From a virus (Duplodnaviria; Caudoviricetes), in the IMG/VR virus record IMGVR_UViG_3300045777_000097, positions 1-55,901 of that record: DNA of 55,901 nucleotides, one strand, 5' to 3'. A model generated the notes under the pieces. The model ran no database searches. It was not told where the DNA came from and worked only from the letters and a program-made list of their open reading frames with translations. The position numbers were made by a program, and so were the translations under genes. Of the stretch, positions 9,247-53,022 are shown piece after piece (the stretch's first letter is position 1; every line of letters starts with the position of its first letter).

Positions 9247-9247
9247 C

Positions 9248-10413: not shown

Positions 10414-10416
10414 GGG

Positions 10417-11130
10417 TCAGCCTCCGGAAAGTTCTTTTTCGATGGCCGCGACGGTGAGTGGCCCGGCATCCCCGTCCACGTCGAGTTTTTCCTTGGCCTG
10501 GAATGCTTTGACGGGGTTGGGGAAGCCGAGCTTTTCCAGGGCGTCCAGAACGCCCTCGAGCGTCGTCAGGAGCGGCGCGGTCGGCTCTGCGGCGCCGGCC
10601 AGGTAGGATCCGGGCGGCGGGTAGTGGCCGGCGTCCGCTTCGGCTTTCACGCGCGCGATGAAGCCGGTGATCCACGCCGGGTTCGTCGATGGGTCGGAGT
10701 GGCCGCCGCCGTCTTTCCCGAGGCCGAAATGAGTCTCGAGGCCCTTGCCCGCCCCGCCCGGGGCACGCTGGATCGGGATGTTGTAGGTTTTGCAGAGATA
10801 GGCCGCCAGGCGGGCGGTGGTCAGCAACAGGGCGTCGCTGTAGCCGTTCTTGCTGTAGCCCGCCATCTCGATCCCGATGGTGCGAGAGTTGAACGCGCAG
10901 GCGTGCCAGGCCTTGTCGGAAACGCGGACGCACTGGTCGATCTTGCCGCCGTCCTCGCGGATGACGAAATGCGCCGAGACCTGCGACTGCTTTTCCTTGA
11001 ACCATTCGTCGGACGCATCGAAGTCGCCTTCGCAGTCGTGGATGACGATGCCGTCGATGTCGGCAGTGCGGGCGGAATAATTCGGCGACGGCGTCCACGA
11101 CAGGGGGGGGAGCCATTCGGCATTTGCCAT
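10417..11130 (-). CDS. Endolysin: N-acetylmuramoyl-L-alanine amidase (Amidase_2 type) with C-terminal peptidoglycan-binding domain
   Basis: SPNYS, IVIHDCEG, VSAHFVI, AWHAC, IGIEM, HSDP; VKAFQAKEKLDVDGDAGPLT. Confidence 0.93.
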   Translation of the reverse strand: MANAEWLPPLSWTPSPNYSARTADIDGIVIHDCEGDFDASDEWFKEKQSQVSAHFVIREDGGKIDQCVRVSDKAWHACAFNSRTIGIEMAGYSKNGYSDALLLTTARLAAYLCKTYNIPIQRAPGGAGKGLETHFGLGKDGGGHSDPSTNPAWITGFIARVKAEADAGHYPPPGSYLAGAAEPTAPLLTTLEGVLDALEKLGFPNPVKAFQAKEKLDVDGDAGPLTVAAIEKELSGG

Positions 11131-11142
11131 GATCGTGGTCCC

Positions 11143-11283
11143 TCAGATGGTGCGGGCGTCCGGCTGCGGAACCTTGCCGGGGGCGAAGCGATAGAAGGGG
11201 ACGAGGCGCTTCGGCGTTGGCACGGGGGCGGCTTCGACCTTCGGCGCCGGCGCGGCCGGCTTGGCGGCGTGTTTCTTGCTCAT
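11143..11283 (-). CDS. 46-aa Pro/Ala-rich peptide
   Basis: Hand translation MSKKHAAKPAAPAPKVEAAPVPTPKRLVPFYRFAPGKVPQPDARTI; AAGGAG RBS. Confidence 0.5.
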   Translation of the reverse strand: MSKKHAAKPAAPAPKVEAAPVPTPKRLVPFYRFAPGKVPQPDARTI

Positions 11284-11296
11284 TTCAGGGCTCCTT

Positions 11297-11950
11297 TCAG
11301 TTGTTGGCCCAACCCTCCGAGAGGGCTTCCCAGCCGTCCGGCTTCGGCCCGCGCGACGGCGGCCAGATCCCGGAGGCGATCAGGACCCAGGTCTCCGCCA
11401 TGGTCCCGCGGCGCTCCGCCTCGCCGTTGGAGACGGTCCCGGCCTTCTCGAAGCTGATCGTGGCCGACATCGCGACGCCGTAGGCGCTGCGCCTGGCCGT
11501 GATCGCGGCGGCGCCGTAGCCGAGGGGGAAAGTGGCGAACTCCCACAGGGTCGCGCGGACCTCGTTCTCGAGCGTGTTCTGGCCGGCGAGGACCAGCGCC
11601 TTGATGTCGATGCCGAGGCCGGGCGCGGTGATCCTGCCATCGGCGGTCTTGTGGCCATCCCGGATCGCCACGGTGCGCGCTTCCTTGCGCTGGTAGAGGC
11701 CGAAGCTCGTCGGCGTGCCGACCGGGTGCGGCGCCCACGACAGGCGCTTGCCGGCCTCATCGACGTAGTCGCCCATCCCGTTCGGATCGAGGTCCTCGTT
11801 CTCCCCTTCGGCGCACCCGAGCATGCCAAAGGCGAACGGATTCGGGTGCCCGGCGGCGCGGTAGAGGGCGTGCAGCTTCCGCGCGCGGGTGAACAGCGTC
11901 TGGCCATCCGGGGAGGCAGGATCAGGCCACAGGGGGATCGTTATGTTCAT
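11297..11950 (-). CDS. Phage tail-lysozyme-like peptidoglycan hydrolase
   Basis: GMLGCAEGE...DP...GD...SFGLYQ...FEKAG...RR pattern. Confidence 0.65.
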   Translation of the reverse strand: MNITIPLWPDPASPDGQTLFTRARKLHALYRAAGHPNPFAFGMLGCAEGENEDLDPNGMGDYVDEAGKRLSWAPHPVGTPTSFGLYQRKEARTVAIRDGHKTADGRITAPGLGIDIKALVLAGQNTLENEVRATLWEFATFPLGYGAAAITARRSAYGVAMSATISFEKAGTVSNGEAERRGTMAETWVLIASGIWPPSRGPKPDGWEALSEGWANN

Positions 11951-12086
11951 CGTCGTCCTCCAGATAGACCTTCGCCGCGGCCGCCATGTACCGCAGGAAC
12001 GGCCACGCCGAGATCATGCCCCACACCGCAGCGCCCACGGCGGCGGCTGCGAGCGTCCCCCAGCCGATCTGCTGGGCGTCCGTCAT
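11922..12086 (-). CDS. Small membrane protein with acidic tail
   Basis: MTDAQQIGWGTLAAAAVGAAVWGMISAWPFL...; ATGA overlap. Confidence 0.55.
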   Translation of the reverse strand: MTDAQQIGWGTLAAAAVGAAVWGMISAWPFLRYMAAAAKVYLEDDDEHNDPPVA

Positions 12087-12454
12087 GCGCGCTGGCCGCC
12101 GCGCCCGAGTTGCGTCTGCGCGTCCCGCATCGGGTTTGGATCGCCGTGGATCGTCCCGTCGGCGATTCCTTCGATGATGTACGCAGCAAGCGCCTCGGCG
12201 GCCGGAGCCGCGAGCGTGGCGACAAGGGGGCCGCCGGCCGCCCGGAGCGCCGCCTCGATGATGGTGTCCGCGACCGCTTCCCCGTCCGAGACGGTCGCCG
12301 CGCCCTCGACCAGCCGCGAGGCGACGGCCCCGAGCGCGCGGACATCGCCGCCGGTGAGCGTCAGCTTGCCGATCTGAATGGCCGGCGCGGCAGGGGCCGT
12401 AGCCACCGGCGGCGCGACGACCAGTTGCCTGATCAGGTCGCCGAGCCAACTCAT
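12083..12454 (-). CDS. Ala-rich hypothetical protein
   Basis: 123 aa; ATGA overlaps. Confidence 0.7.
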   Translation of the reverse strand: MSWLGDLIRQLVVAPPVATAPAAPAIQIGKLTLTGGDVRALGAVASRLVEGAATVSDGEAVADTIIEAALRAAGGPLVATLAAPAAEALAAYIIEGIADGTIHGDPNPMRDAQTQLGRGGQRA

Positions 12455-12801
12455 TTCTGGGCGAGTCCGGCGGCAACCGTCTGCCCGACGAACTCGGCCG
12501 CGTTGATCGCGATGCCGGCCAGCGGCGCCGCGGCGGCGAGGGTCTGGGCGTCGGTCGCGGTCGCGGCGTTGCCGACGAGCAGGCGCTTGACGACCGTCTG
12601 CACGGTCGCGTTGTTCGGGTTCGCCGCGGCGATCTGGTTGAGCAGGGCAGCGTTGAGGGTCGTGTACGCCTGGACGCCGGCGGCGGCGGTCGGCGCGGCG
12701 GCGACAGCCTTGTTCGCGGCGGACGTGACGGCGGCCTGGTTGGCGCAGCCGGCGAGCGCGAGGCCAGCGAGGGCAACGCCGATGAAAGCGAATCTGGTCA
12801 T
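12451..12801 (-). CDS. Lipoprotein (possible spanin component)
   Basis: MTRFAFIGVALAGLALAG-C lipobox. Confidence 0.75.
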   Translation of the reverse strand: MTRFAFIGVALAGLALAGCANQAAVTSAANKAVAAAPTAAAGVQAYTTLNAALLNQIAAANPNNATVQTVVKRLLVGNAATATDAQTLAAAAPLAGIAINAAEFVGQTVAAGLAQK

Positions 12802-12850
12802 GACGGTTCTCCGAGGGGGAAGAGGGCCGGGCGCGGGGCCCGGCGTGCGG

Positions 12851-13270
12851 TCACTTCGCGGCGGCGGGGGCGGCGCTGGTCATCGTCGCCTGCAGCTTGC
12901 CGATCTGGCCCACGATGATCGAGGCGGCGAGCTCGGGCGTGAGGCCCGTCGCGGAAACGGCCCTGGCGAGCGCCGGCGCCGAGGCGGAGACGATCGCGTT
13001 GGCGGCGGCGGCGATGCCCGGGGATCCGACGTTGACCTGGGCAGTCGCGAGATTGCCGAGCGCGCCGGCGACGAGCTTCCCGGCCTCGTTGGCGCAGGCC
13101 GTCTCGATCTGCGTCTGGTAGGCGGAGGCGACTGCGATGCCGGCGCCCTTGAGCGCGGCGAAGACGAGGCCGCCAAGGGCGAGGACGACGGACCCGGCGA
13201 TGGCGGAGATGTAGGGCTGCAACGCCTCGATGAGGGGCGCGACGTTCACGACGGCGGTTGGGTCGGACAT
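12851..13270 (-). CDS. Holin-like membrane protein
   Basis: YISAIAGSVVLALGGLVFAAL TM segment; first gene of the lysis cassette; GGAG RBS. Confidence 0.55.
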   Translation of the reverse strand: MSDPTAVVNVAPLIEALQPYISAIAGSVVLALGGLVFAALKGAGIAVASAYQTQIETACANEAGKLVAGALGNLATAQVNVGSPGIAAAANAIVSASAPALARAVSATGLTPELAASIIVGQIGKLQATMTSAAPAAAK

Positions 13271-13321
13271 GGATGTCTCCAATGATCCGACGCCAGGCCG
13301 CCGCAGGGCGTCACAGGCCGC

Positions 13322-13350
13322 CCTCTACCACACGGCTGATAGGGCATCAA
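13322..13350 (-). promoter_or_regulatory. Sigma70-like promoter for the lysis cassette
   Basis: TTGATG-17 nt-TAGAGG with an upstream TG. Confidence 0.4.
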
Positions 13351-16300
13351 TTCCCCCATCGCCATGCGCTTGTGCTGTCGTCGCAGTGCGCCCAATTGTT
13401 GACCGTCGTCGATCCGCCCGCAGTCACAGTCCCGTTCCAGGCCGGGGCAGCGTTTGCGAGCGTGTCGTGGACAAACGCCCGAGCGCCCCGGACCGCGCTC
13501 GTGCAGGAGATCGCAAGCAACGTCGCTATCGAAAGCTGCTTGCTCGGATAGACCAAGCCGTCTGCATACCAACACTCGCCATAGACCCCCTGCGGGCTCC
13601 AACACGTTTGCCCCGCTGCGATGCCCGAACCCCATGAAGTCGCGGATGTCCCGACGCTCATAGTGGCCGATCCGCCCGGATGCCGGTGCATAATGATCCC
13701 CGTTGGGGATATCTGCATTTGAGCGTCGGAGTTTCCGCTGATCGGGTTTACGCCCGTGACCGAGAGCCCGACAGCGGTATCGCCTCCGCCCGTGTTGATC
13801 TCGACCGGGTTGACCGGGCTGTCCTCGTTCGGCCCAATTCCGAGAGAAGTAAATCGTCCTGTTGTGAGGGTGTTGATCGCCCCAAACGACTGCACCCCTG
13901 CATACTCGATACCGACATAGGGGATCTGCCCGGCATTGTTGACGGTGGTAGTTGAATATAAATTCAGCACATCCCCGATTGCCACAGTCGAGGCTGCTGT
14001 GGATTTCAGCGTCACCGTCGTTCCAACAACCGATGCCGATGTTCCGACGACCAGACCCGTAGTCGTATCGCGGACGCTGACACCATTAGACAATGCAGTC
14101 GCCCACGCTGGCGGTGTCGATGGGAGAGTGAACGAAGTCGTCACACCTGACGTTATCGTGGCGCTGTTGGTGAAGTTTGCCCCGTAGTTGCTTACAAGCA
14201 CCGGGCCTGCTGCGACCCACCCGGCGTCCAGGTTGTGGATGCCTTGGTAAAACTCTCCGAGCTTTGCTGCACCGATCCAGTTCGATCCCCGCATCATAAG
14301 CACTGCGTCGGCCGCGTTGACATAAGTCGAGTTGCTACTGATCCCGACGCCCAAAGCTTGTATGGTGCAGTTTGAAAAGATATGACCGAACGAATAGCCG
14401 TCGATCTTGATTGCGACGCTTTCCCAATCGGTGAAGAACGGAAAATCAACGCCGCAGTTGTTGACTGTGATCCAAGTTGATTGATTGCCCATGTGGAACG
14501 CAACGTCGTAGTATAGGACAAACACATCCGAAAGATAAAGCAACTGGTCGTCTCCGACCCCTCCGAAGTTGAAAGCGGTTCCATGGCGGAGCAGCGATGT
14601 GACTTGCAGCGTTCCACCGCTGGTATAGGTTCCGGGCGTCAGCGTGAATGTATCACCCGTCTGCGTCGTCAATGCTTGAGCATTGATCTGCGCCGAGCCG
14701 GAGGTTGCATCGAACCACGAGATCGACGTGCCGCCCGGCAATGACGAAGCAGAGTCCGTGACGGTGTAGCAGGCGGCAGTGGTCGAGCACGCACGTCCTG
14801 GAAGGCCGACAAGCCCGGTCAGGAAATACCGCGCGCCCGTCGTGTCGCCGACGCCAATCGTGTTCCCGGTGGCGGTGAAGGCGCCGTAGTGCGCCCCGGA
14901 GAGGGTGGCGCAAACGGAGCCCGAGCAGGAGGAAACGGCCGAAATCGTCCAGCGGTCCACGAGATCAGGCCGTCCGCCTGTGCCACTGACGAAGACGACA
15001 TCGCCGACCTGCACATCCGAACCCGAAGGGAGGATCACCTGGACAGCATTTGACCCGCCGTTTTGGATCCCGGATATAGAATAGGTCGTCGTCTGGTTCG
15101 TAGAGTTCTGCGTCAAATATGGCTCAAACTGCACATCATGTATGCTGCCGACATCGTGGACATATTCAAAGGTCGCGCCATTCGTGCAGTCGCCCCGCAC
15201 ATGCTGCATCGACGGATGGATGGTCTCGAAATCAGCGCACTGCGCAAAGCCGAGGATAGACGTGTTGATGATCTGGGCGTTCTGCCCGCCGACTGCCGGG
15301 ACACTGTCCGCCGGGGCGAGCACGCCGGTCCCTGCGAAAAGCGCGAGTTGCTGCAACTGCTGTCGCGTCGTTCCGGTCAGCAACGAGGGCGAGAGGTTCG
15401 GGTTGATGACCTCGAGTTGGATCGCGGCCGATGGGCGCAGGACCACCGCCGCCGACGCTGTGGTCGATCCGCCGAGTTCGCAGGCCCGCGTCCCGTAGGC
15501 CGACACCTGAAACGGCTGGATCGCCTGGAGGTTCTGCGCGCAAGCGAGCGTGATCCCACTCGGAACGACGATCTGCGCCGAGGCGGCGAGACATCCGGTA
15601 GGCGCGGACAGATAGTAGGTTCCGGCGCCGCCTGAGCTTGTCGCAAAGGCTGCGAGATCCGCGTTGAGGGCGGTTGCGATATCGGTCGATCCGGTGAGCG
15701 CGCCGTTGCAGGAGAGGTTGGAATATTTCACGGGTCCGCCCGCCAGCGCGAGACCCCCGTTGACCGTCAGCGTGTTCGCCGCCGTTTCGCCCAGGGTGAT
15801 GTTGCCGCCCTCGTTCAGGGTCAGGGCGGCCGTGAAAGCATTGTATCCGTCCAGGAAGCTCATGTGGCTTCCAGTCCCGTAGCCACCCGAGGACGCAAGC
15901 TGCCAGTTATAGTGGCTGGTGGTGGTGTCGCCCCGGAAATAGATGCTGGCGGCGTTGGTTCCGCTTGCTGGCGTCATGTATACTTTCGCGTCACCACTCC
16001 CCGGAGCGATTGACAGCGTGTTGCGTCCGCAATTGTCATTGTCGAAGACGCCGGGCGTGCTGCCGGAAATGTTGTTGACGGGACAAGACCCGGTGATTCC
16101 GGTCGCATCGAATTGCGCCCACGTCCCGCTGACGGTCAATGGACCGCTCGCAAAGTCCGTTCCGACGACCGAAGCCCTGGCATTGACCGACGAGTCGTTG
16201 CTGGTCAGCGTGAGCGGGTTGAGGAAAAGACCGCCGGTGATCTTGAACTGGCTGATCGTGCCGCCGGATGCGGGCGCGAGCGTCGAGGCCGCCGTCTCGG

Positions 16301-17642
16301 CATGGATCGCCGTCAGATCCCATTGGTGGACGCTCGTCGCCGAATTGAGCGCAAACAGTGGCGTGCTTGGCGCGTTGATGGTCGTGTTCGTCATTGTGAA
16401 TATGGGGATGTCAGTGACAGTCGAGTCGCTGTAAAAGACGCCGCCCCCAGACGTGGCGAGGTCTTCGACGTGGCCGCCGATGACGTGATAATTCCCCGCG
16501 TCAAATGTCCCGGTCGTGTAGTTCTCCCACTCCCAGAAGTGCAGAGGCCCGGTCGCCGCGCCTGAATTGAATTGGACGGTGTTGAAAGTTACCGTGTTCG
16601 CCGCGCCCGCTCCTGCGGCGTTGGGGTTCTCAACACGGACATAGGTGTTGGCCGCATAGTCATACGCCGCGCCCTGACGGCCGCCGAACCAATAGAGTTC
16701 GGGCCAATTGACGACGTCGATATAGGCGTCCGAGCACCGCTCTGAGCTTGAATTCCAGACTTCGGCGTGGATGCCGCCGGCCGCGCCGCCGACGTGCGCG
16801 TAAAACTTGTAACAGATGCCGGCGTTGTCGCTGAGGACGTCTCGGATCGTGGCGGCGTAGCCGTAGACCATGACGTTGACGACGCTCGCCGCCGGCGTCG
16901 AGCCCGCGTGGCTGACCGTGCCATTGACGAGCTCGGTCGGCGCGTTGGCGTTGGAGACGCCGAGGCTGACGCAGGGCGAGACCCCGGCGTCGCAGACGAT
17001 CCCGCCGCCTGGGTCGGGCGAGACGCCGGTCTGCGGGTTGTAGCCGCCGAGATCGAGGGTCAGATAATAGGGAACGACAATCGTCGTCGAGGCGCGGCAG
17101 AGCTTTCCACGGGGGATCTTGACCAGGCCATGCCGCAGCACGCCGCTTTGCAGGGACGCCTTCTGAAGCGCGGCATTGATCGCTGCGGCGTCGTCTGTCA
17201 CGCCGTCGCAGACCGCGCCGAAGTCGGCTTCGACATCGAACACGGCGCCGAAGTTGGTGGTGCGGTCGGCGAGGGTGGCGGGCGTGATCGCCCCCGTCCC
17301 GATGACGGTTGCGCCGCCTGTGGTGCATGCGCCGCCCGCGTCGACCAGATTCCCGTAGACGTCGATCGAAACGCAATCCCCACTCCCGAGCACCCCCGCG
17401 GTCGTGGCGACGGCTGCCGCCCCCGGCCTCACCACAAGATCCTGCTTGGCCTTGAACAGAGACTCCCACGCGGCGTAGCCCGGAACGCAATGCGGGCCCC
17501 ACCCGGCCGTCGGCGGTGTCACCGGGCATACATCCGGGCCACTCTTCCCGAGGATGGTCTCCGGGTTGCTCTGCCCCAGCGCGAGGCCCGCCCAGGTGAT
17601 AAAGACGGAAAGGGCCAGAAGGCGTCGCATAGTTCTGGTCAT
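13347..17642 (-). CDS. Tailspike/depolymerase-like tandem beta-helix protein with predicted Sec signal peptide
   Basis: MRRLLALSVFITWAGLALG/QS; FDVEADFGAVCDGVTDDAAAINAAL (pectate-lyase-3-like start); second entry LSCNGALTGSTDIATALNA; C-terminal GARAFVHD...W.WG fibre-type end. Confidence 0.8.
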   Translation of the reverse strand: MTRTMRRLLALSVFITWAGLALGQSNPETILGKSGPDVCPVTPPTAGWGPHCVPGYAAWESLFKAKQDLVVRPGAAAVATTAGVLGSGDCVSIDVYGNLVDAGGACTTGGATVIGTGAITPATLADRTTNFGAVFDVEADFGAVCDGVTDDAAAINAALQKASLQSGVLRHGLVKIPRGKLCRASTTIVVPYYLTLDLGGYNPQTGVSPDPGGGIVCDAGVSPCVSLGVSNANAPTELVNGTVSHAGSTPAASVVNVMVYGYAATIRDVLSDNAGICYKFYAHVGGAAGGIHAEVWNSSSERCSDAYIDVVNWPELYWFGGRQGAAYDYAANTYVRVENPNAAGAGAANTVTFNTVQFNSGAATGPLHFWEWENYTTGTFDAGNYHVIGGHVEDLATSGGGVFYSDSTVTDIPIFTMTNTTINAPSTPLFALNSATSVHQWDLTAIHAETAASTLAPASGGTISQFKITGGLFLNPLTLTSNDSSVNARASVVGTDFASGPLTVSGTWAQFDATGITGSCPVNNISGSTPGVFDNDNCGRNTLSIAPGSGDAKVYMTPASGTNAASIYFRGDTTTSHYNWQLASSGGYGTGSHMSFLDGYNAFTAALTLNEGGNITLGETAANTLTVNGGLALAGGPVKYSNLSCNGALTGSTDIATALNADLAAFATSSGGAGTYYLSAPTGCLAASAQIVVPSGITLACAQNLQAIQPFQVSAYGTRACELGGSTTASAAVVLRPSAAIQLEVINPNLSPSLLTGTTRQQLQQLALFAGTGVLAPADSVPAVGGQNAQIINTSILGFAQCADFETIHPSMQHVRGDCTNGATFEYVHDVGSIHDVQFEPYLTQNSTNQTTTYSISGIQNGGSNAVQVILPSGSDVQVGDVVFVSGTGGRPDLVDRWTISAVSSCSGSVCATLSGAHYGAFTATGNTIGVGDTTGARYFLTGLVGLPGRACSTTAACYTVTDSASSLPGGTSISWFDATSGSAQINAQALTTQTGDTFTLTPGTYTSGGTLQVTSLLRHGTAFNFGGVGDDQLLYLSDVFVLYYDVAFHMGNQSTWITVNNCGVDFPFFTDWESVAIKIDGYSFGHIFSNCTIQALGVGISSNSTYVNAADAVLMMRGSNWIGAAKLGEFYQGIHNLDAGWVAAGPVLVSNYGANFTNSATITSGVTTSFTLPSTPPAWATALSNGVSVRDTTTGLVVGTSASVVGTTVTLKSTAASTVAIGDVLNLYSTTTVNNAGQIPYVGIEYAGVQSFGAINTLTTGRFTSLGIGPNEDSPVNPVEINTGGGDTAVGLSVTGVNPISGNSDAQMQISPTGIIMHRHPGGSATMSVGTSATSWGSGIAAGQTCWSPQGVYGECWYADGLVYPSKQLSIATLLAISCTSAVRGARAFVHDTLANAAPAWNGTVTAGGSTTVNNWAHCDDSTSAWRWGN

Positions 17643-17673
17643 TGTCAGGTCCCGGGGTTAGGTCGCGCTACCT

Positions 17674-19275
17674 TTAAGGATAGGTATAGGCGCCGGCAGG
17701 CGGCGACGTCGTGCTGAAGGCGTTGCCGGCATAATCGGTCAACGGCATCGTTATATTAGGGAACTGAGCCGTAAGTGCAGAAAGTTCCGCGCTTGATGTC
17801 TCGCCGAGACCAATCGCGGGAGAGCCAGAGGTCAGGTGGAAGTCAAACGGCCCGTTCGATCGGCTCTGCGTCGTGAACCCGAGCGGCGGGTCATTTGGCG
17901 ATAGCACATTGTCGCCGAAATATGTTCCTGCTACCTCAGTGATGACAGCAGATGTGCCATTCCAATACCAAAAATTGTTTGTAACCATGTTGGCGTTAAC
18001 ACGCGACCCTGCGGGAATTTGTTGTGAGCCCATGTTTGCTTGGGCTGTGGGCGAGATGTTGTCGACGAAAACGATGTGATCGCCATAGCCATACTCGGTC
18101 GACGTGAACCCATTCGCCTGCAACGATCCGGCAGTCGTACAGGCTCCGTTCAGCGTCGACCCGTCCCAGACAACCGTGTTGTGGGCAAAAAGCGCGTAGT
18201 GAGCCCCGCCCCAGGACAGGCCCCAACATGCGGTTGTTACCACAACGTTGTCGAGTATTCTGACGTCTGTCCACCCGGAATTGAAAGCGTCGATGCCCTG
18301 GGCCGCGGTTGCAAATAGGTCAGTTGGATCGTTGGACCGCTGACACCAATTCCGCTGAATCAGAATATCGACATATTGCCCGTCCTGACCATGGCCGCCG
18401 CCGGCCGACCCCCATCCCTGTATACAGTCCGGGTGGTTCCCATCGACGAGAATTTGATCGTGCATAAAGTTGCCCGAAATCAAATAGTGGTCGCCGCCAA
18501 AGTCAATTGCGTCATCAATCGTGTAGCTGATGGTGTTGTCAGCAATCAGATTATTTGAGGCAAAGATATTCGCGCCATAGGTTACATTGTGAATCGTGTT
18601 GTGCGACACGGATATGCAACGGGAGACGTTATCGGTCTTTACGCCTCCGCTGGTTACGTACGTGGTCCAATTCGCGGCGGTGTACGAAGTTCGTGCCGCG
18701 TCTTCGACTACGGCAACGTTGTTGTTGTCGAAGACGATGTCCGTGCTGCTGCTGGCGTACATCAGCGCGCCACCATAAGACCCCGTCCCTCGGAGAGTAA
18801 GACCCGAAATCCGGATTCGGTTGATGTTCGAGGTATTGGCCCCATTCAACACCGGCGTCTGTCCGGGGGCCGCCGCGATTGTCAATCCCTTCGACAGGGT
18901 GATAGGCGGATAGGGGGTCAGGCTCAGGGCAGTATTATAGGTTCCGGAGTTTAGGAGCACCTCGTCGCCATCGTGGATCTGGCCCGAGCTCCCCGGATAG
19001 AACGCGAGACGAGGGCCGCCCCATGCGCCAGAGGTCGTCAACGACTGGACGGTTTGCCACGGATGCGCCGCTGTGCCGCCGCCGGCGGCGATGCTGGTCA
19101 GGTCCGAGCCGTTGACGGGGTCGATGTACCAGACGTTGCCATACGTCGTCGGAACGACCGTGCAGCCGGGATAGATTTCCGGGCCGCCGACCTGCGTCCC
19201 GGTCCCATGGATCGTGCGAGCAGGCGCCGCCAGCGGGAGGAGCGCCGACAGGAGGATAGCGACAAGGATTCTCAT
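17674..19275 (-). CDS. Right-handed beta-helix protein (lyase/depolymerase-like) with predicted Sec signal peptide
   Basis: MRILVAILLSALLPLAAPA/R; WYIDPVNGSD...GTAAHPWQT; GDEVLLNSGTY; HPDCIQ; C-terminal DFHLTSGSPAIG...DYAGN...GAY. Confidence 0.8.
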   Translation of the reverse strand: MRILVAILLSALLPLAAPARTIHGTGTQVGGPEIYPGCTVVPTTYGNVWYIDPVNGSDLTSIAAGGGTAAHPWQTVQSLTTSGAWGGPRLAFYPGSSGQIHDGDEVLLNSGTYNTALSLTPYPPITLSKGLTIAAAPGQTPVLNGANTSNINRIRISGLTLRGTGSYGGALMYASSSTDIVFDNNNVAVVEDAARTSYTAANWTTYVTSGGVKTDNVSRCISVSHNTIHNVTYGANIFASNNLIADNTISYTIDDAIDFGGDHYLISGNFMHDQILVDGNHPDCIQGWGSAGGGHGQDGQYVDILIQRNWCQRSNDPTDLFATAAQGIDAFNSGWTDVRILDNVVVTTACWGLSWGGAHYALFAHNTVVWDGSTLNGACTTAGSLQANGFTSTEYGYGDHIVFVDNISPTAQANMGSQQIPAGSRVNANMVTNNFWYWNGTSAVITEVAGTYFGDNVLSPNDPPLGFTTQSRSNGPFDFHLTSGSPAIGLGETSSAELSALTAQFPNITMPLTDYAGNAFSTTSPPAGAYTYP

Positions 19276-19283
19276 GGGTCGCC

Positions 19284-20675
19284 CTATTGAAGAACTTGTC
19301 TCAGGATAGGCCGGCCGAACGTTGCCGTAAAAGCCGCGCCTGCAACTGTGTTGATGGTTATGGCCATCTGGAACAAGGTTGTCCCGGTTGGAACGACTGC
19401 GGGAGGCGTGCGCATTAGATATGTAGTGTTGGGGAGCCAGTAGGTCTGAGCCAAGGAATCTACCTGTTCGCCCCACAACGCAGCACCGCTTAACCCATAG
19501 TTCGGAAAGATCGAGAGCCAGATATTGCTCAAAGCCGCCACATTGGCCCCGAGTGTCATTGTAACAAGCGCCTCGACTTGCTGACCGACTAATGCTGCTG
19601 GACAACTTGGGATAGATTGGACCGCCCAGGTGTCCGCGCCGGTAGGCGTAGCACTCGCCGTGAATTGGTCGCCGCCGAGCGCGCCGTAGCCCTGCCCTGC
19701 GGTCGCGGGGATCTTGGCTAAGGTGAGCGTGTCCGATCCGGCCGATCGCGCCGCCGCCCAATAGCTCGGGAGTGCCCCCGTCGTTCCGGTTCCGATGCCG
19801 CCAGCAGTCCCTTGAAACTGCGTGGCGCCTGTCCCGAGCTGGCTCAGAAGGTTGCCGCCTGGGTTGTTGGTCGCGTCATAGAAGTCGAGCGTGCCATTTG
19901 TGATGATCGGCGCGGGTGGGACAAGACTGCCGAGCGTCGCCAAACATCGCTTTGCAATAGTGATGACCGCGAGCGAGGCGGGATGCAGACCGTCGGTGTC
20001 CCCCATGTTTGTGCCTGGTATCCCGGTCGTGCTGGTAGGGTCAGCAATATCGTCCCAGAAGTCGAAATAGATCACACCAGGCGTCTTCCGTGCCCAAGTC
20101 CCGATGATGTCGTTACCCCAGGCCGCATATTCGCCGCTCTGCGTGGTATAGGCGTTGCCACCCGTTCGGGGTATGAAAGGTGTACCGAGAAGCAAGACCT
20201 TGCCAGCGGCAGCACACAGGGCTTGGATCGCCTTAATATTGGCGAGCGACTGCGCCGGTGTTAGGCTGCTGACGGCATAATCGTTGTTCGCGCTCGCCCA
20301 CATCAGCAACCAATCGAACGTTGAGAAATAGGGCGCGACGTTCGCGTTGAAGTTGGCGAGAAGATACGCGGTCGTCTGGCCGGTCCATCCGGAAACCTGG
20401 GTTAGCGGCTGCGAAATCCGAAGCGCGCCCTGCGACATAGCCTCAAGCATGACGGAGAGCCCGCTACGGGTCGAGTTGTAGGTCGGGGAAGACGTACCGT
20501 TGCCTGTCATGTAGGCGTGGGTCGTGGCGGACTTGCCATATTCAAACAAGTTGGTCGGTCGGCTGGACGGGAACACCATCGGGGGCACAAACATCGAGTC
20601 CGAGAACGCTCGGGCCGGCAGAAGGAGACCGGCGGCGCCTGCACTCCGGAGCAGAGTTCTGCGATTGATATTCAT
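19284..20675 (-). CDS. SGNH/GDSL-like hydrolase with predicted Tat signal peptide
   Basis: MNINRRTLLRSAGAAGLLLPARAFS; block I YGKS, block III ANND, block V DGLHP. Confidence 0.75.
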   Translation of the reverse strand: MNINRRTLLRSAGAAGLLLPARAFSDSMFVPPMVFPSSRPTNLFEYGKSATTHAYMTGNGTSSPTYNSTRSGLSVMLEAMSQGALRISQPLTQVSGWTGQTTAYLLANFNANVAPYFSTFDWLLMWASANNDYAVSSLTPAQSLANIKAIQALCAAAGKVLLLGTPFIPRTGGNAYTTQSGEYAAWGNDIIGTWARKTPGVIYFDFWDDIADPTSTTGIPGTNMGDTDGLHPASLAVITIAKRCLATLGSLVPPAPIITNGTLDFYDATNNPGGNLLSQLGTGATQFQGTAGGIGTGTTGALPSYWAAARSAGSDTLTLAKIPATAGQGYGALGGDQFTASATPTGADTWAVQSIPSCPAALVGQQVEALVTMTLGANVAALSNIWLSIFPNYGLSGAALWGEQVDSLAQTYWLPNTTYLMRTPPAVVPTGTTLFQMAITINTVAGAAFTATFGRPILRQVLQ

Positions 20676-20676
20676 A

Positions 20677-22065
20677 TCAGTATGTCTCCGTAACGCTGAC
20701 AACGTCGGTCCCGGAAGCGGTGATCCCATAGATCGCAGCGGTTGTGTCGAGTGTCACCGAGGCGCCGGCGATCAAAACCTGTCCGGTCGCCGTCGTAACG
20801 CCAGATGCGCCGAAGTACACAACGGTTGAGCCGGAATTATAAAGCGTGACGGATACGCGCCCGATACCCGTTACGCCGGTTCTCGCCGCAACTATTGTCG
20901 CCGCACTCGTGCTGATTGAGGCTTGTGACGTGGCGATAGACGCAGGCCCGACAGGTTTACTGGAACCCCCAGCGACAGGAACGCCGGAGCACATTCCCGA
21001 TCCGCCACTGATGCTGAGGGTCGTCGTCCCCGCAGCCGTGATTGCTGAAAGGTAGGAAGACGACCCGACCCCATAGCACCATGTGAATCCTGGCTGGATC
21101 AGGTCGCCTGCCGTGGCGCTCGCCGTCACGGACGATGACCCGAACAAGGCCCAAGCAGCATTTGCGCCGGTGTTTGTGACCTCGACAGTCGCCCCCGCCG
21201 GCAGAGCAACCCTATTGCCGGACGATGTTGTGGCGGTCAGGCTCGCGAACGCCCCTCCCTGCACAAAGGCCGCGTCTGGGCTGTCCACCGCCGCGATGAC
21301 GCGCGTGGTCGCCGAGCTCGAAAAGCCGGCCGCTGTCGAGACGTTGACGCCTGCGATCTGCTCGTTGACGGAGCCGATGTTGTTCGTCCCGCCAGGGATG
21401 GCCGTGTTCGATGAACCTGCGATGGTCGACAAATAGGTGAGTTCGGTCGCCTGATTGGCCGCCGTCGCCGCCCCGCCGATGGTGCCGAGGTTCCAGGCCG
21501 CGCCGGTGGCAGGCTGGACATAGAGGCCATTGGCAGCGCCGACGACAGAACCACCCTGCACGGGCTGGTCGAACCAGGCCGACGAGGCCGAGCCCTGCGA
21601 GCCCTGCGTGACCGTCCCGCCGCACACGCCCATCGCCGCGCCGGGGATGGCGTTCAGGCCGATCGTCGCGCTGCCCGATCCGACGCTCGAGACCCGGAAC
21701 CGGACATTCGTCAGGCCAGACGTATCGACCTTGAAGGATTGGTCCGCCGTCATCGTCGTAAAGACGGTGGGCGACGGGCAGGTAAAGGGCACCCCCACGA
21801 TCGCAACCCACACCTTCGTCGAATCGCTGTCCCCCTTGGCGTCGCTCGAACCCTCGATCGTGAGGGTGGCGCCGGACGCGGTCAGCCCGGCGACGTTCAC
21901 CCCCATCACCGCCTCGTTCCTGCTGAGGTCGAAGACGAGGACGTTGTTCAGCGTGCCGGTGGCTAGGGGCTGCGCCGAGGTCCGCAGGTTGTCGTCGGCG
22001 ATGGCCGGGGATGCTGCGGCGAGGGCAAGGAAGGCCGCCAGGGCGGCGCGAGCGAAGGGGCGCAT
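20677..22065 (-). CDS. Multi-beta-sandwich protein with predicted Sec signal peptide
   Basis: MRPFARAALAAFLALAAASPAIA/DD; GGAG RBS; Thr/Ser/Gly-rich beta domains. Confidence 0.75.
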   Translation of the reverse strand: MRPFARAALAAFLALAAASPAIADDNLRTSAQPLATGTLNNVLVFDLSRNEAVMGVNVAGLTASGATLTIEGSSDAKGDSDSTKVWVAIVGVPFTCPSPTVFTTMTADQSFKVDTSGLTNVRFRVSSVGSGSATIGLNAIPGAAMGVCGGTVTQGSQGSASSAWFDQPVQGGSVVGAANGLYVQPATGAAWNLGTIGGAATAANQATELTYLSTIAGSSNTAIPGGTNNIGSVNEQIAGVNVSTAAGFSSSATTRVIAAVDSPDAAFVQGGAFASLTATTSSGNRVALPAGATVEVTNTGANAAWALFGSSSVTASATAGDLIQPGFTWCYGVGSSSYLSAITAAGTTTLSISGGSGMCSGVPVAGGSSKPVGPASIATSQASISTSAATIVAARTGVTGIGRVSVTLYNSGSTVVYFGASGVTTATGQVLIAGASVTLDTTAAIYGITASGTDVVSVTETY

Positions 22066-22104
22066 CGGGTGCTCCGAATTTGCGCCGCCGCGCTCTTGGC
22101 CCGG

Positions 22105-22133
22105 CTTATAGCCCATGCGCCGGGGCGCCTCAA
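22105..22133 (-). promoter_or_regulatory. Sigma70-like promoter ahead of the signal-peptide gene cluster
   Basis: TTGAGG-17 nt-TATAAG in the 76-bp gap. Confidence 0.5.
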
Positions 22134-22141
22134 GGATCGCC

Positions 22142-24346
22142 CTATCCGATGACGGTGATCGCCTCCGCGCTCGATGCGCAGTCCGTGAACTGCAGCTTGA
22201 ACGTTCTCGTCGTGGCGGACGCCATCTGGAATTGACTCGCGCCGCTTTCGTTGCCCCAGAACGATACGCCAGCGCCGGCCTGGATCGTGCAGACCCCGTT
22301 CGTCCCATTGATGATCGTCAAGTCCAGCGTCTTACCAAAGAAAGCATCCTCGACAGAGCCGACGATCAGAGCCGCCGTTGGCAAGGTCATAGTGAAGGAG
22401 CCCGGGGTTCCTCCAATGACGTAAAGGCCGCCGACAATCTTCGAGGCGGCTACGGTGTAGGAACCCGTAATATTGTCGTCCCCGGGGACAAGACGCCCTG
22501 GCAGCGCCGGCAAGCCATTCTGCCAGGTGTTTCCCACGCAATAGCTGTCGTAATCCACATTCCCCCAATAGATAGCTTTCGTCTGCGTACCATAGAACCG
22601 GCAATTACTGACGGTGACACGGTAGGAGCCCGGGTTCACCGCCACGCCATAGCGCCAATAGAGGGGATCGCCCCATGTCAGGAATTCGCTGTCGAAAATA
22701 TGGATGTCCTGAGACCCTGTGTCGATCCAGACGGCGTCCCACAGATTTGCCCCTGCCTTGCTCCCGGGCTCGAACAGGCAATCGGTGAACCGGACATCGC
22801 GCGCGCCCGAGATCGTGACGGCGCGCTCCCTGGTGTTGCCGATTCGGCACCCGGTGAACCGGATGTCGCTGGTGTACGACGCGCTCGTGTCGCCGGCGAT
22901 GTACACCGCCTCGGCGTCGCCGAAACCCTGCGCGCCCGGGAATGCCCCGGCCCCCGGCGTGGACGTGTTCTGCAGCCAACAGTTTGTGAAATAGAACTCC
23001 CGGCCGCCGTCAATCTGTAGCGCGCGCCACGCCATGCCGTCCATGACGAGGTTGAAAAAGACACCGAAGGACGGAACGTAGGCCGCCGACTCCGCAGTGT
23101 TCTTGATCCACAGGCCGATATGGCAGTCGAGGAACGTCACGTTGCAGACGTTGAGCGTCCCCGCGCTCCCGTCCCACCACATCCCGTCGGCCCCTCGATA
23201 CATGCAGTTGACGACGATGTTGTTGAGATTGAGCGCCGGGGCGTCTTGCGCCGTCGTCGACCCGTGCCAGTATATCGCCCAACTTCCGTTAACGCCCTGC
23301 ACAAGAACGGTATCCACGCTCGGGGTGTTCGTCTGGTAGAACTCGATCCCGTTCCATACGTTAGTGAAATTCACGTCGCGGATGATGGGAGACCAGAACG
23401 TGTTCTGCGCGAAGATGGCGCGACCGCCCGTCCGGCTACTGCAGTCGAATTTGAGGTTTTCGATCCGGACGCCGTTGGTCAGCGAAGACGGCGCCGCCGT
23501 TCCGATCGTCAGGCAGTCCCCGGTCCCGGCCCCGAAATAGAGAACCGAATTGGCGTTCGACGCCCCGACGAAGGACACCCCGCCGGGCGGCCCGATGAGG
23601 ATAGTCCCGAGGAACGTGTAGCTAAGGCTGCGGAACCCAAGTCGACCGCCGCCGAAGTGCTGCAGATAGACGATTGCGGCGTTTAGGGCGGCCGTGTTGT
23701 CGGAAGCGATCGAGAAGACGCCGAGGCTTTCGACTGGAACCAGCGGACCCAGCGCGAGTTGCCACCAGGCCCCATCTGCGGTCTGGACGTTCCCGGCGAG
23801 CGCGGGGGACGGGGGCGCCGGCAGCCTCGAATAGACGCCCTCGCCGCCGTCGCCGGCCGTCGCGTAGCCAAGGACCTTGACGCAGGATGTCGAGCTCAGG
23901 ATCGACGCCCCCGAGAAGGCCGCCCGGGAGCTCCACACCGCCTGCACCGTCGCCGCGGCGATCACCGCCTGCTCCTGCAGGCTGTTGATGAACGTGAGCG
24001 GCGTCACGCCGATCGTCGGGGCGTCCTGTTGGCATGAGAAGACCCATTGCCCATAGGCGGCCCCGTGGACGACGTAGACCTGCGTGCCGTTGTAGACGGC
24101 CGAGGAGTTGGTGAAGTCCTCCGCCCGGCACCAGGCGCCAGTCTGCGCGATGTAGATGCCGTTGGTCGTCTGGTCGGCGTTCTGCCAGACCAGCACCCGG
24201 TCCCCGGACTGCGTCTGGTAGCCGTCGACCACGGGCAGGCCGATCAGAGCGCCCGTCATGTCCGCGGCGGTGGCGACCTTGCAGGGGGCCTTGTAGGCGG
24301 CGGCGTCGTCCAGCCCACCGAGAACGTCAAGCGGATTCGTGCTCAT
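22142..24346 (-). CDS. Tail fibre/tailspike with virion-anchoring N-terminus and beta-helix; no signal peptide
   Basis: CKVAT...GLPVVDG...GDRVLVWQNADQTTNGIY...WCRAEDF N-terminal domain; GYATAGDGGEGVY; DNTAALNAAI followed by beta-helix repeats. Confidence 0.85.
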   Translation of the reverse strand: MSTNPLDVLGGLDDAAAYKAPCKVATAADMTGALIGLPVVDGYQTQSGDRVLVWQNADQTTNGIYIAQTGAWCRAEDFTNSSAVYNGTQVYVVHGAAYGQWVFSCQQDAPTIGVTPLTFINSLQEQAVIAAATVQAVWSSRAAFSGASILSSTSCVKVLGYATAGDGGEGVYSRLPAPPSPALAGNVQTADGAWWQLALGPLVPVESLGVFSIASDNTAALNAAIVYLQHFGGGRLGFRSLSYTFLGTILIGPPGGVSFVGASNANSVLYFGAGTGDCLTIGTAAPSSLTNGVRIENLKFDCSSRTGGRAIFAQNTFWSPIIRDVNFTNVWNGIEFYQTNTPSVDTVLVQGVNGSWAIYWHGSTTAQDAPALNLNNIVVNCMYRGADGMWWDGSAGTLNVCNVTFLDCHIGLWIKNTAESAAYVPSFGVFFNLVMDGMAWRALQIDGGREFYFTNCWLQNTSTPGAGAFPGAQGFGDAEAVYIAGDTSASYTSDIRFTGCRIGNTRERAVTISGARDVRFTDCLFEPGSKAGANLWDAVWIDTGSQDIHIFDSEFLTWGDPLYWRYGVAVNPGSYRVTVSNCRFYGTQTKAIYWGNVDYDSYCVGNTWQNGLPALPGRLVPGDDNITGSYTVAASKIVGGLYVIGGTPGSFTMTLPTAALIVGSVEDAFFGKTLDLTIINGTNGVCTIQAGAGVSFWGNESGASQFQMASATTRTFKLQFTDCASSAEAITVIG

Positions 24347-24411
24347 GGTTCCGTGCCCCGGGACCAGAGAATGCCGCCGGGGTCAGCGTTTACCAGAGGG
24401 CCATGGTCAAG

Positions 24412-27174: not shown

Positions 27175-30100
27175 TCCCCTATGATCTTTGCGAGAATAGA
27201 CTCGTGCGGCACGGAATTGACCAGCGTGTCCCTGTCGACGATGTTCCCCTCGCCATCCGGGACCATCCGCAGGAGCGGATTGCCCCCGGCCTCGGCGGGT
27301 TTGGCTGCCGAGGCCGCAGGCGCGGGCGGCGCTGGGCGCAGGGACTCCGCGACGTCCTGATCGCTCCGGGTGTGGAAGACGGCCCCGACCTGCCGCAGGG
27401 CGTCGATCAGATCAGTCGCCGTTTGCGCGCCCACCGTCGCCTTCATCTTCTGGCCGGATAGCTGCCAATTGTCATAGACGCCCCGGACGACGCCATCGGC
27501 GTAATATTTCCGGCCCTCTCTTCGCAGCGCCTCGAAGGCGTAGCGCGGTCCGCTTTTCTTGACCATCAACGCGCCGTCGACCGACCAGACCTCCGCATCC
27601 GGGACAGCGTCGAGGAACTTGATGAGGTGGTCCCCGTCCACGAAGTTGACCGCGCGCTCCTTCATGAACTCCTTGGCGTCGAACATCCGCCCCAGAAGGA
27701 TCGCCGGGCGCGTCTGGCCGCCCTCCATCGTGTGCGTGACGATCTGCCCGGCAAGCTGCTCGTAGCCCGCCAGCAGGTTCCCCGTGACCATGTAGCGGTC
27801 TTCGCGCCCGTCCTTGTTCGCCGCCTCGAACATCGGCCCCAGATCGTCCGCGCGCAGATTCGGGTTGCTCGCGATCGTGACGCTGTCCTCGCGCTCTTTG
27901 CCGCCGGCAATGATGAGGCGCGAAAGCGGGATGGAGAGGGACCGGGAACTGTTCGGCAGCGCGAAAAGCGCGTTCCACGCCGACAACGCGACCGGGTTCT
28001 TGACCTTGGCGTCCCGGGTGAGGCCGATCACGACCGCCGGCATGTCCTCGCCTTTGACGGTGAGCGTGACCGTCGCGCCCGGCCGGGCGACGTCGGACAG
28101 GGTCTCGAGCGAGGCGAAGGCATCCTCGAGCTTCGCCCGCGCCCGGGTCTTGGCGTCCGGATCCTTGGTCGCGGCGACGACCTGCCGGATGTGTTCCTGC
28201 GCCTCTGTCCGCACGCGGGCGATCATCGCGGCCTGCTTCTTGCCCCCGCTCTTTTCGAGCGCGCGGAGCTCCATCGCGAACGGCCGCTTCGTCGGCGTCT
28301 CGCCAAGGTGATCCGCGATCGCCGTCGTGACCTCGTCCGGGCGCATGGCGCGGCCCTGCGCCTTGACCGACACCTTTTCCAGATTGACCGGCCCCTGGAA
28401 CGGGGAGGGCCCGGTCGCCGGCTTGATCTCCGTCGAGTCGATCGTGCGCGCCTGGAGGTCGAGCGACTTCGCCTCGAGGTCGTTCGTCCCGGCGGCGTCC
28501 ATGGCCTCGATGACCGCCTTGTAGGCCGCCGTGATCCGGTCGATGAACTCCTGCTGCTGCTCCGGGTGGAGCAGCGTGAGGCGCCCGGTCGCCTTTGCGG
28601 CCAGGCCAGCGATGTTGTCCTCGATGCCGGGCTCGCCGAGCAGCGTCCAGAGGTCCGGGTCGTCCCGCAGGATCGCCGCAACGGCGCGATCGCCGTATCT
28701 GTTCAGGAAGTCGACCGCGTCGGCGGTGAACTTGCCCTTTGCGGCGCCGGTCGTGTTGGCGTTCAGCGACGCCATCTTTCGCATCAGGATCGCGGTCGGG
28801 CGCGTCTCCGCCGGGATCTCCGCCGCGAGGTGCGTGTAGCGCGGGAGCGTGACCTGCCCGGTGCGGTTGATGCGCCCGAGCATCTGCATGTGGGTATTGA
28901 TGTCCGGGTCGGCCTCCCCAATAATCATGCGCCTTGGGCGCCGATCCTTGAACTTGATCGAGGGGTGCATCGAGAGGCCGGTCGACATCGACTTGTTGCC
29001 GAGCACGGCATCCAGCCTCCCGTCGTTGAACATCTTGACCGTCTGCTTCTTGCCGGCGCTGCCAGTCTCGGACGATGGGCGCCGCACCAAAAAGGTCCCG
29101 CGCCCGGCGTTGTGCTGCGCCATCATGTCCTCGAGGGACGCGCCCCGAAGCGCCGGTTCGTCGGTCTGGTCGGGCGCGTACATCTGCCAGTCTCGCCGGT
29201 TCTCGCCATGGACAAGGGCCGTCGGGAACGGGTGGCTCTCATGCACCGGCGCGGCGACCGAGTAGCCCTGCCGCTCGAGGTCGTCGACCGTCTCCCTCGG
29301 CCGGGAATAGTCGACCATCGCCGATCGCCCGGTGATCTCGCGGATGGAATACCCGGCCTTCTCGATGACGTTCCGGATGGTGTCGAGCGGCGAGACCGGC
29401 AGGTCGCCGAGGTCGATGCTGTCGAGCAGGTCCTCGGCGGCGTGGTACATGTCGAGCGCATGCGCCGACATCATGTGCAGCGGGATCATGACGCGGATCT
29501 TTTCGTCGTCGCCAGATTTGATCGTCACGCGCCGGGTGCGCTCGAGATAGCGTTTCAGGATGTCGACGAAGCCGATGTTGATTTCGTCCCCGATCTTGAT
29601 GCCCTCGTTGTCGGCAAAATCCTTGATGAAGGCGTCGTTGGTTTTCGACAAGGCGATGACCGGCTTCTCCCCGGCCAGAAGCGCCTCGACCGCGCGCTCG
29701 CCGGTCTTCTGCGCTTTCAGCGCCATCACCATCTGGCTGATGATGTTGTGCATGACAGAGGCGAACGAAGTGGCGTCAACCGACGCCTCGCCGACGCCTC
29801 CGTCATGCGTCGTTCCGCCGCCCATCTCCGCGGCGAGCTCCTGGGCGATCTCGAGGCGCTCCTCCTCGAATTCGCGATCGAACTGGAAGATCGAGCGCAG
29901 CCCGTCGGAGAACTCGGAGTAGGCTTGCTCGCTGACGGGGATGCCCTCGTAGTCGTAGTTGATGCCCTCGAAAGACCGCTCCCGGCGCATGTACTGCCCG
30001 GCGTCCGCGAGCATGGACGCCACGATCTGTTGCAGCGGGACTCCGCCCTTGCCGATGAGGTCGGGCAGCTTGGAGACGTCGTCGACCGCCTTCAGCATGT

Positions 30101-45901: not shown

Positions 45902-45902
45902 G

Positions 45903-45931
45903 TTGCCCCAAGTGGTGAGGTTAACTAATAT
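45903..45931 (+). promoter_or_regulatory. Sigma70-like promoter for the HNH gene (probably leaderless)
   Basis: TTGCCC-17 nt-TAATAT ending 6 nt before the ATG at 45938. Confidence 0.5.
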
Positions 45932-45937
45932 ATCTGG

Positions 45938-53015: not shown

Positions 53016-53022
53016 CGGGGCC

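Follow-up and report, generated by a model that had tools for sequence, protein, structure and literature searches.

The window analysed here is the whole of the IMG/VR virus record IMGVR_UViG_3300045777_000097 (Duplodnaviria; Caudoviricetes), a linear stretch of 55,901 bases with a completeness of 82% according to CheckV. In this soil podovirus, matches to PHROG families outlined a late operon that is encoded by the minus strand, and at the junction between its tail fibre gene and its lysis cassette lie four consecutive genes, named A to D here, which are tightly packed on the same strand and each of which starts with a predicted export signal (Table 1). The tail fibre gene and A are separated by 76 nucleotides (nt), A and B by 1 nt, B and C by 8 nt, C and D by 31 nt, and D and the next gene by 64 nt; the starts of A and B are preceded by GGAG. 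An earlier note made from the letters alone (the original prediction) had described the four genes as a candidate new system of exported tailspike-like proteins located between tail fibre and lysis genes, and this placement is correct.

Predicted export signals

Signals were predicted with a heuristic of our own, which requires that the n-region be positively charged, that a hydrophobic 10-mer without charges lie close to the start and that positions -3 and -1 be occupied by small residues. Six of the 38 composition-supported open reading frames (ORFs) of the window passed: A, B, C, D, a truncated plus-strand gene (E) with which the contig ends on the right and a 116-amino-acid (aa) lipoprotein with the motif LAGC. 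The N-terminal segments end in SPAIA/DD (A), LAAPA/R (C) and GLALG/QS (D), where the slash marks the predicted cleavage site, and B carries the motif NRRTLL and ends in ARA/F. These are the four signal-like N-termini that had been read from the sequence before and, as also stated then, the adjoining tail fibre has none; it fails the heuristic. Four signal-bearing ORFs stand in a row and two more are found among the other 34, and chance is excluded as an explanation.

The predicted signals are traits of the protein families, conserved in homologues with independent sequences and independent starts. In the C family, all 22 aligned homologues were signal-bearing by eye (they were not scored with the heuristic). 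In the D family, 83 of the 149 retrieved homologues passed the heuristic; by eye, several of those that failed begin like tail fibres and others are fragments. On inspection, seven of eight relatives of the A-type N-terminal domain start with a signal, and so do five out of five relatives of the N-terminal domain that is shared by D and E. Conserved signals, for which a survey of related phages had been proposed in the original prediction, were thus seen in homologues of A, C and D, and similar runs of signal-bearing genes were found in other phages as well (see below).

Table 1 Features of the window and of compared phage loci. Signals and cleavage sites (slash) are predicted; positions of the last four rows refer to the locus named.
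Feature	Position	Strand	Description
Gene A, 462 aa	22065..20677	-	signal, beta-sandwich, Gly/Ala/Ser/Thr-rich middle, conserved C-terminal domain
Gene B, 463 aa	20675..19284	-	Tat-like signal, putative SGNH/GDSL esterase domain, C-terminal domain
Gene C, 533 aa	19275..17674	-	signal 1-19 (APA/R), then right-handed beta-helix of polysaccharide hydrolase/lyase type
Gene D, 1431 aa	17642..13347	-	signal 1-23 (ALG/QS), N-domain, two beta-helix modules, Cys-containing C-terminal domain
Gene E, truncated by contig end	55641..55901	+	signal, D-type two-Cys N-domain (~40% identity), start of pectate-lyase-type beta-helix
Promoter-like TTGAGG (22133..22128)-17 nt-TATAAG (22110..22105)	22105..22133	-	upstream of A, weak
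Tail fibre/tailspike, 734 aa	24346..22142	-	no signal peptide; matches to phage tail-fibre and virion families at the N-terminus; Beta_helix domain
phrog_684 virion protein	27174..24412	-	PHROG match
Internal virion proteins	38201..27162 (one of 3679 aa)	-	PHROG matches
Tail tube proteins	47241..46597 and 46027..43061	-	PHROG matches
Major head protein	49131..48271	-	PHROG match
Portal/adaptor	53093..51285	-	PHROG match
Large terminase	55088..53484	-	PHROG match
Lysis cassette	13282..10417	-	143-aa membrane protein first
Spanin-like pair	12801..12451 (116-aa LAGC lipoprotein)	-	lysis cassette; lipoprotein gene overlaps a 123-aa gene
217-aa protein, then Amidase_2 endolysin	11130..10417 (endolysin)	-	lysis cassette
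BcepC6B gp19	L013 20959..22032		annotated tail fibre or structural protein
KL4 gp48	L015 5533..6465		annotated tail fibre or structural protein
PBR31 orf035	L014 5932..6741		annotated tail fibre or structural protein
PBR31 gp40	L014 8188..8835	-	SGNH esterase with lipoprotein-type signal; by the integrase, opposite strand; parallels B

Domains and folds of the signal-bearing proteins

In gene A, the signal is predicted to comprise residues 1-23 with cleavage at AIA/DD, and the start methionine is shared by the homologues P0040-P0042. The structure model has a confident beta-sandwich at residues 28-140; the remainder of the protein was modelled poorly. The best match of the sandwich in the PDB was YomS (6i5o; E 1.6e-5, target TM score 0.71, root-mean-square deviation 2.9 over 113 columns), XepA (6i56) was found with E 1.4e-3, and the identity to both amounts to 14-19%; a search of PDB sequences with the A profile recovered neither. 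Many unnamed phage proteins were matched by the sandwich in a viral structure library. In the N-terminal domain, including the signal, A and its four closest relatives (P0040, P0041, P0042 and P0044) share 72-83% identity, but the C-termini of these relatives are quite different; the C-terminal domain of A was found again in other proteins, of which some have a signal and some lack one. Six further relatives (P0043, P0045, P0049, P0057, P0059 and P0060) have repeats of a LPLPSGAATAANQ-type motif between their domains, which look like repeats of the fibre type. Close relatives of the N-terminal domain were not found in IMG/VR, and the A profile found no relatives in species genomes.

Gene B is the candidate for export by the twin-arginine translocation (Tat) pathway: the twin-arginine motif NRRTLL is followed by a hydrophobic stretch and by LLLPARA/F, and the sequence passes the heuristic. 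The Pfam model TAT_signal (PF10518) scored 18.7 bits with the first 40 aa and 13.3 bits with the whole protein, which is below its cut-off of 22.7; Lipase_GDSL_2 scored 32.1 bits at a cut-off of 32.9, and NCBIfam gave no match. SGNH enzymes are defined by the blocks I, II, III and V, which contain Ser, Gly, Asn and Asp-x-x-His, respectively, and GKS, G, ANND and DGLHP, which would fit these blocks, can be read in B by eye in the right order. The nearest clusters shown in a language-model search (score at least 0.9) were SGNH/GDSL proteins, and about half of their members with known taxon are viral. Relatives of B were found neither among cultured phages by tblastn nor, as far as close ones are concerned, in IMG/VR. 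The language-model resource holds B from residue 33 onward only and, hence, one public gene call omits the signal.

It could be argued from this that A-D are not exported at all, with true starts further downstream or with N-terminal segments that stay uncleaved, and that they are common tailspikes of the cytoplasm or soluble depolymerases that lysis sets free. The SGNH domain of B would indeed be intact from residue 33, where that gene call begins, and both curated models for B remained below threshold. We consider this explanation highly improbable since homologues of A, C and D, with sequences and starts of their own, have conserved signals, since GGAG is found before the upstream start in both A and B, and since four signal ORFs follow each other in the window with two more among all the others.

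The homologues of C form a family of ~530-580 aa with a conserved cysteine after the signal-like segment, and the Pfam domain Beta_helix was detected on several of them. AlphaFold predicted a right-handed beta-helix for C with a predicted local distance difference test (pLDDT) score of 72.6 and a core above 90. Foldseek gave 58 matches in the PDB at E ≤0.001, and those listed were mostly beta-helix enzymes and tailspikes: GH136 lacto-N-biosidases came first (9e-8), followed by PL6 and PL9 lyases, mannuronan epimerases (AlgE), RbmB and phage tailspikes, the latter including those of P22 and HK620. Conserved columns of the family are, for example, H281, D283 and Q286. Some C homologues are located on contigs of 321-391 kb and are, therefore, probably cellular genes.

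The largest protein, D, has an N-terminal domain of 50 residues (24-~75) with two invariant cysteines, which is common to E and to five metagenome proteins with different C-termini. It is followed by a first beta-helix module (~78-660) as in P0064 and a second one (~627-1180) as in P0065. The match of D to Pect-lyase_RHGA_epim was weak, and its homologues are beta-helix proteins. Modules of the P0064 and the P0065 type are found elsewhere as separate signal-bearing proteins, suggesting that D is a gene fusion. The same modules are also present in proteins without a signal, whose N-termini look like those of tail fibres by eye. Gene E, the fifth signal-bearing gene, is divergent from the terminase gene. 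Since it is located at the right contig end, the exported set would not be limited to the junction of tail fibre and lysis genes, and E probably belongs to the same exported late set as A-D. No close relatives of D were found in IMG/VR, and the profile of the D/E N-terminal domain found none in IMG/VR, species genomes or metagenome contigs. Nothing useful came from searches of PDB sequences, which were run with B and D themselves and with the profiles of A and C. In sum, the folds that had been named originally, a beta-sandwich (A), which is of a binding type, an SGNH esterase (B) and beta-helices (C and D), are in agreement with these results.

The closely spaced cysteine pairs that had been noticed in D are present (90/106, 906/911, 952/958 and 1347/1357, among a total of 28 Cys or 1.96%), but they do not discriminate between exported and cytoplasmic proteins as had been supposed: the signal-less tail fibre is equally rich in cysteine (16 Cys or 2.18%, compared to 0.52% in the remaining proteome), and, thus, cysteine richness is uninformative on the compartment. 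The cysteine rate of the tail fibre (22142..24346) is four times that of the rest of the proteome despite its cytoplasmic assembly. A paralogy of the tail fibre beta-helix with C or D was considered and rejected, as blastp gave nothing below E = 3.

No PHROG family, virion families included, was matched by A-D; the adjoining tail fibre matched nine. NCBIfam returned only noise on A-D, and no match to an endolysin, holin or spanin family was obtained with any of them.

Recurrence in other phages

Six loci in IMG/VR encode homologues of C; they represent five lineages, since L004 and L006 carry the same gene. The heuristic was passed by five of the six homologues, in one case only from an internal start, and the homologue of L008 failed. 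Four tail fibre genes of these and related loci were checked, and all four failed. At L006, the C homologue begins 2 nt after a collagen-like tail fibre gene. L003 (114..7522) has three signal proteins in a row next to the terminase gene: a C-like protein, a protein of 1604 aa without family and a trypsin-like protease. Three more loci were found via the A profile. One of them, a 19-kb IMG/VR contig (L010), contains, in this order, genes for an ejection protein, an A-like signal protein, a signal protein with a weak GDSL match plus a lectin domain, an endolysin and spanin-like proteins. The other two, L011 and L012, are one lineage, in which a tail fibre related to that of the window (31% and 25% identity) is followed by an A-like signal protein; in L012, two further signal proteins come next, one of which has a PcRGLX lyase-type domain. 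The idea that the A-like protein co-varies with the receptor-binding part of the fibre was dropped, because the A-like proteins of L011 and L012 are near-identical and the C-termini of their fibres differ.

The closest cultured phages, Ralstonia phages C22 and RpY1 and Burkholderia phages BcepC6B and KL4, are distant (~25% identity in tail tube protein B), and megablast with an 11-kb block found no relatives among cultured phages. BcepC6B has the same gene order as the window, but a single small gene, gp19, separates its tail fibre from its holin; compared to this layout, A-D are an insertion of 8.7 kb at the junction of tail fibre and lysis genes. The gene gp19 and its counterparts in KL4 (gp48) and PBR31 (orf035) are located directly between tailspike and holin in these three cultured temperate podophages. 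Their products begin with MKK, followed by a hydrophobic stretch and by A-x-G/S before a predicted cleavage site and ATL, and the segment after the signal is conserved. KL4 and PBR31 are no independent sample since they were found by similarity to gp19. Kinship of the gp19-type proteins with A-D was rejected, as there is no homology. Ralstonia phage C22 is a counter-example, in which no signal-bearing gene was found between fibre and holin. The assumption that tailed virions never carry such proteins has become less safe, because the signal proteins of BcepC6B, KL4 and PBR31, encoded next to the tailspike, end in a domain that is homologous to the C-termini of annotated tail fibres.

PBR31 encodes a second signal-bearing protein, the putative SGNH esterase gp40, for which the record annotation mentions a possible O-antigen modification. 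In the accessible text of the paper on PBR31, a signal peptide is mentioned for this separate SGNH esterase, to which a role as an aid in lysis is ascribed as a suggestion, whereas the signal of orf035 is not mentioned there (PMC10975493).

Composition, transcription and setting of the gene block

The block is less GC-rich than its surroundings, as had been noted: GC content at third codon positions (GC3) is 0.79 in A, 0.69 in B, 0.68 in C and 0.75 in D, compared to 0.83-0.94 in the eight other genes measured. The sequence TTGAGG-17-TATAAG, which had been put forward as the promoter of the block, exists, but it is a poor one: the -10 hexamer lacks its final T, and a consensus promoter scan of positions 12700..24600 did not call it. 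The scan found two promoter-like sites, compared to 2.5 expected, a count that is not above that of shuffled sequences, and it detected no terminator over the whole stretch from tail fibre gene to lysis cassette. Short metatranscriptome contigs that are 100% identical to the window were found in four runs (X6, X7, X9 and X10) and cover parts of A-D as well as of the tail fibre and lysis genes. Contigs from RNA libraries give neither level nor strand and may stem from DNA carry-over, and uncovered bins were left uninterpreted. Since they also lie on the tail fibre and lysis genes and carry no level or strand, these contigs cannot tell late from lysogenic expression.

One explanation for such a block would be a horizontally acquired set of moron genes, expressed from its own promoter in lysogens, whose products remodel the glycans of the host and thereby block adsorption of related phages (lysogenic conversion or superinfection exclusion). 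The low GC3, the 8.7-kb insertion relative to BcepC6B and the promoter-like site before A are as one would expect, the signal-bearing SGNH esterase of PBR31 lies beside an integrase gene and may modify O-antigen, and the RecT and exonuclease genes that are present in the window fit a temperate phage. However, the promoter is weak and uncalled, no terminator isolates the block, and A-D stand in a tight head-to-tail arrangement with the late genes. Further, neither an integrase nor a repressor was seen in the 82%-complete record, in which the scan covered 20 ORFs besides those of the block and of the lysis cassette, and the RNA contigs do not separate the two modes of expression. Therefore, we regard an acquired lysogenic set as possible but unlikely.

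Some observations concern the record as a whole. The sequence from 8001 to 28000 is present in several permafrost metagenome runs, and a small share of its words was found in one peat run. P0001, P0002 and P0039, whose identity to D, C and A, respectively, is complete or 99%, are encoded on contigs of up to ~85 kb, which exceeds the window; given this length, a fuller genome or a host flank of the element that bears A, C and D may exist. The internal virion protein of 3679 aa (27162..38201) has stretches that match DarB-like antirestriction and DNA methyltransferase families.

Comparison with known systems

Phage G7C has an SGNH esterase as a spike. The virion spikes of P22, HK620 and G7C have the catalytic folds that are predicted for B-D, but they carry a particle-binding N-terminal domain and no signal peptide. 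Llp of phage T5 is a signal-bearing protein encoded beside the receptor-binding gene; it masks the receptor, protects the progeny and excludes superinfection. Lom of phage lambda is described, in the part of the source at hand, as a signal-bearing envelope protein encoded among tail genes (PMC12309495). Lom and Llp are, however, small outer-membrane proteins or lipoproteins, whereas A-D are large and have folds of the tailspike-enzyme type. The gp19-type proteins share with A-D a signal-like N-terminus and are encoded directly between tailspike and holin, but there is one small gene in each phage instead of four.

The nearest cellular parallel is WceF, a glycanase of Pantoea stewartii that is exported by Tat, folds like a tailspike and was proposed to act in the periplasm, according to the available portion of the report (PMC7949094). 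As in C, a right-handed beta-helix comes after the export signal, and WceF acts on the exopolysaccharide of its own cell; unlike A-D, it is chromosomal and belongs, as described there, to a cluster for exopolysaccharide biosynthesis, whereas in the window four genes of different domain types stand in a row in a phage late operon. The PDB sequence searches with the C profile and with D gave nothing relevant to a kinship with WceF. Soluble phage depolymerases that are not part of the virion are also known: phage phiNIT1 encodes PghP and LevP, and tailspikes occur in free form as well. Such glycan-degrading enzymes are made late in infection, and in the accessible part of the article they are released by burst or made from an alternative start, with no mention there of an export signal, in contrast to the signals predicted for A-D (PMC6966330).

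For A, the closest parallel is XepA of the Bacillus subtilis element PBSX. It is a late protein that is exported beyond the membrane and does not occur in particles, and its gene is located between tail and lysis genes, as far as the available text of the study describes it (PMC6834076). In the model, residues 28-140 of A, and only these, have a C2-like beta-sandwich like XepA and YomS of SPbeta. XepA differs in its monoderm host and, as portrayed in that text, is a two-disc pentamer without an enzyme domain; A has a long fibre-like C-terminal part.

XepA and gp40 of PBR31 raise the question of whether A-D are accessories of lysis, which would remove capsule, S-layer glycan or exopolysaccharide that holds the lysed cell, as proposed for those two proteins. 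The position of A-D directly upstream of the membrane protein, the spanin-like genes and the amidase fits this, as does the resemblance of the N-terminal domain of A to XepA, which that text places in the lytic cassette of PBSX, and the role in lysis that the PBR31 authors propose in the accessible text for their signal-bearing esterase (PMC10975493). On the other hand, A-D match no family of endolysins, holins or spanins, 8.7 kb is large for an accessory, and the explanation overlaps with the one preferred below, from which it differs only in the benefit claimed. As a separate explanation, it is quite unlikely.

The term "new system", which had been used in the original prediction, is too strong, as WceF, XepA and soluble non-virion depolymerases are already in print. 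A description of exported phage tailspike-like proteins was not found in the literature, of which coverage was partial. The ingredients are known, then, and it is their combination and its recurrence beside tail fibre genes that appear to be undescribed.

Proposed function

We propose that A-D are enzymes which are exported, form no part of the virion and cut or modify the glycans of the envelope, and we give this reading a probability of about 0.5. A-D and, with them, E are taken as exported proteins outside the virion because their signals are conserved, their folds are of glycan-acting types, virion families are not matched and the genes are read together with the late ones. Export, cleavage, substrate, timing and benefit are all what we infer. 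In this proposal, the general secretory (Sec) pathway would transport A, C, D and E, and the Tat pathway B, across the inner membrane of a diderm host. A would then bind the envelope polysaccharide, be it O-antigen, capsule or exopolysaccharide, B would remove ester groups and C and D would cleave it; these activities would take place in the periplasm and, once the cell has lysed, in its surroundings. Polymerisation and ligation of Wzy-type glycans take place at the periplasmic face of the inner membrane and, therefore, the receptor layer could be stripped or altered from within. The phage would gain in that its progeny is not trapped on the dying cell or on debris, in that it escapes from the matrix and in that superinfection is limited. 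Three interpretations had been offered in the original prediction: (i) appendages that mature in the periplasm and dock on virions at or after lysis, (ii) secreted depolymerases or esterases that clear the capsule for release of progeny and (iii) receptor-destroying superinfection exclusion or lysogenic conversion. We judge (ii) and (iii) to be the likeliest, and the data do not separate the three.

A number of points weigh against exported glycan-cutting enzymes. The export signals are predictions that were made with a heuristic; the scores of B with TAT_signal and Lipase_GDSL_2 are both just under the Pfam cut-offs, and the public gene call starts B at residue 33, omitting the signal, and D at residue 5. 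Sec and Tat deliver proteins to the periplasm only, and a route from there to the surface was not seen for A-D. Soluble depolymerases can be brought to their substrate by lysis alone, as stated in the portion of the article available (PMC6966330), and a signal would not be needed for this. Finally, the N-terminal domains behind the signals are conserved and the C-termini are swapped in the A and D/E families, which is the pattern of an adaptor that docks on virions, and the C-terminal domain of gp19, gp48 and orf035 is homologous to the C-termini of annotated tail fibres of Pectobacterium and Klebsiella podophages, so that these three proteins could be true fibres.

The last two points lead to virion appendages, that is, proteins that would acquire their fold and their disulfides in the periplasm and attach to released particles through the conserved domains that follow their signals. 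The two invariant cysteines in the D/E N-terminal domain and the sharing of the D modules with signal-less proteins, whose N-termini resemble those of tail fibres by eye, would fit as well. We know of no tailed phage that assembles by docking after export, which counts against appendages, and so does the absence of matches between A-D and PHROG virion families. Further, the C homologues on contigs of 321-391 kb are probably cellular, XepA, which is the closest to A among structural relatives whose behaviour is known, is absent from particles according to the available text on it, and the phage already has a normal fibre without a signal that is equally rich in cysteine. This makes virion appendages very unlikely. 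A bolder version, which we regard as just as doubtful, is that some tailed phages have a second, exported set for binding and degrading receptors, in which tailspike and fibre modules would carry a Sec or Tat signal and a small conserved docking domain in place of their virion anchor and which would mature in the periplasm, with at least some fibre-like members (such as A or gp19) joining the particle or the cell surface only at or after lysis. If true, a part of the adsorption apparatus of tailed phages would be assembled outside the cytoplasm.

Exported, non-virion enzymes acting on envelope glycans remain the reading that we prefer. Phage depolymerases are now classed either as virion spikes or as soluble enzymes that are freed by lysis, and remodelling of glycans in the periplasm would, if true, be a third route. 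It bears on the trapping of progeny on debris, on superinfection exclusion and on the use of "tail fibre" annotations in the prediction of host range. BcepC6B, KL4 and PBR31 are cultured phages and, thus, the question is open to testing at the bench.

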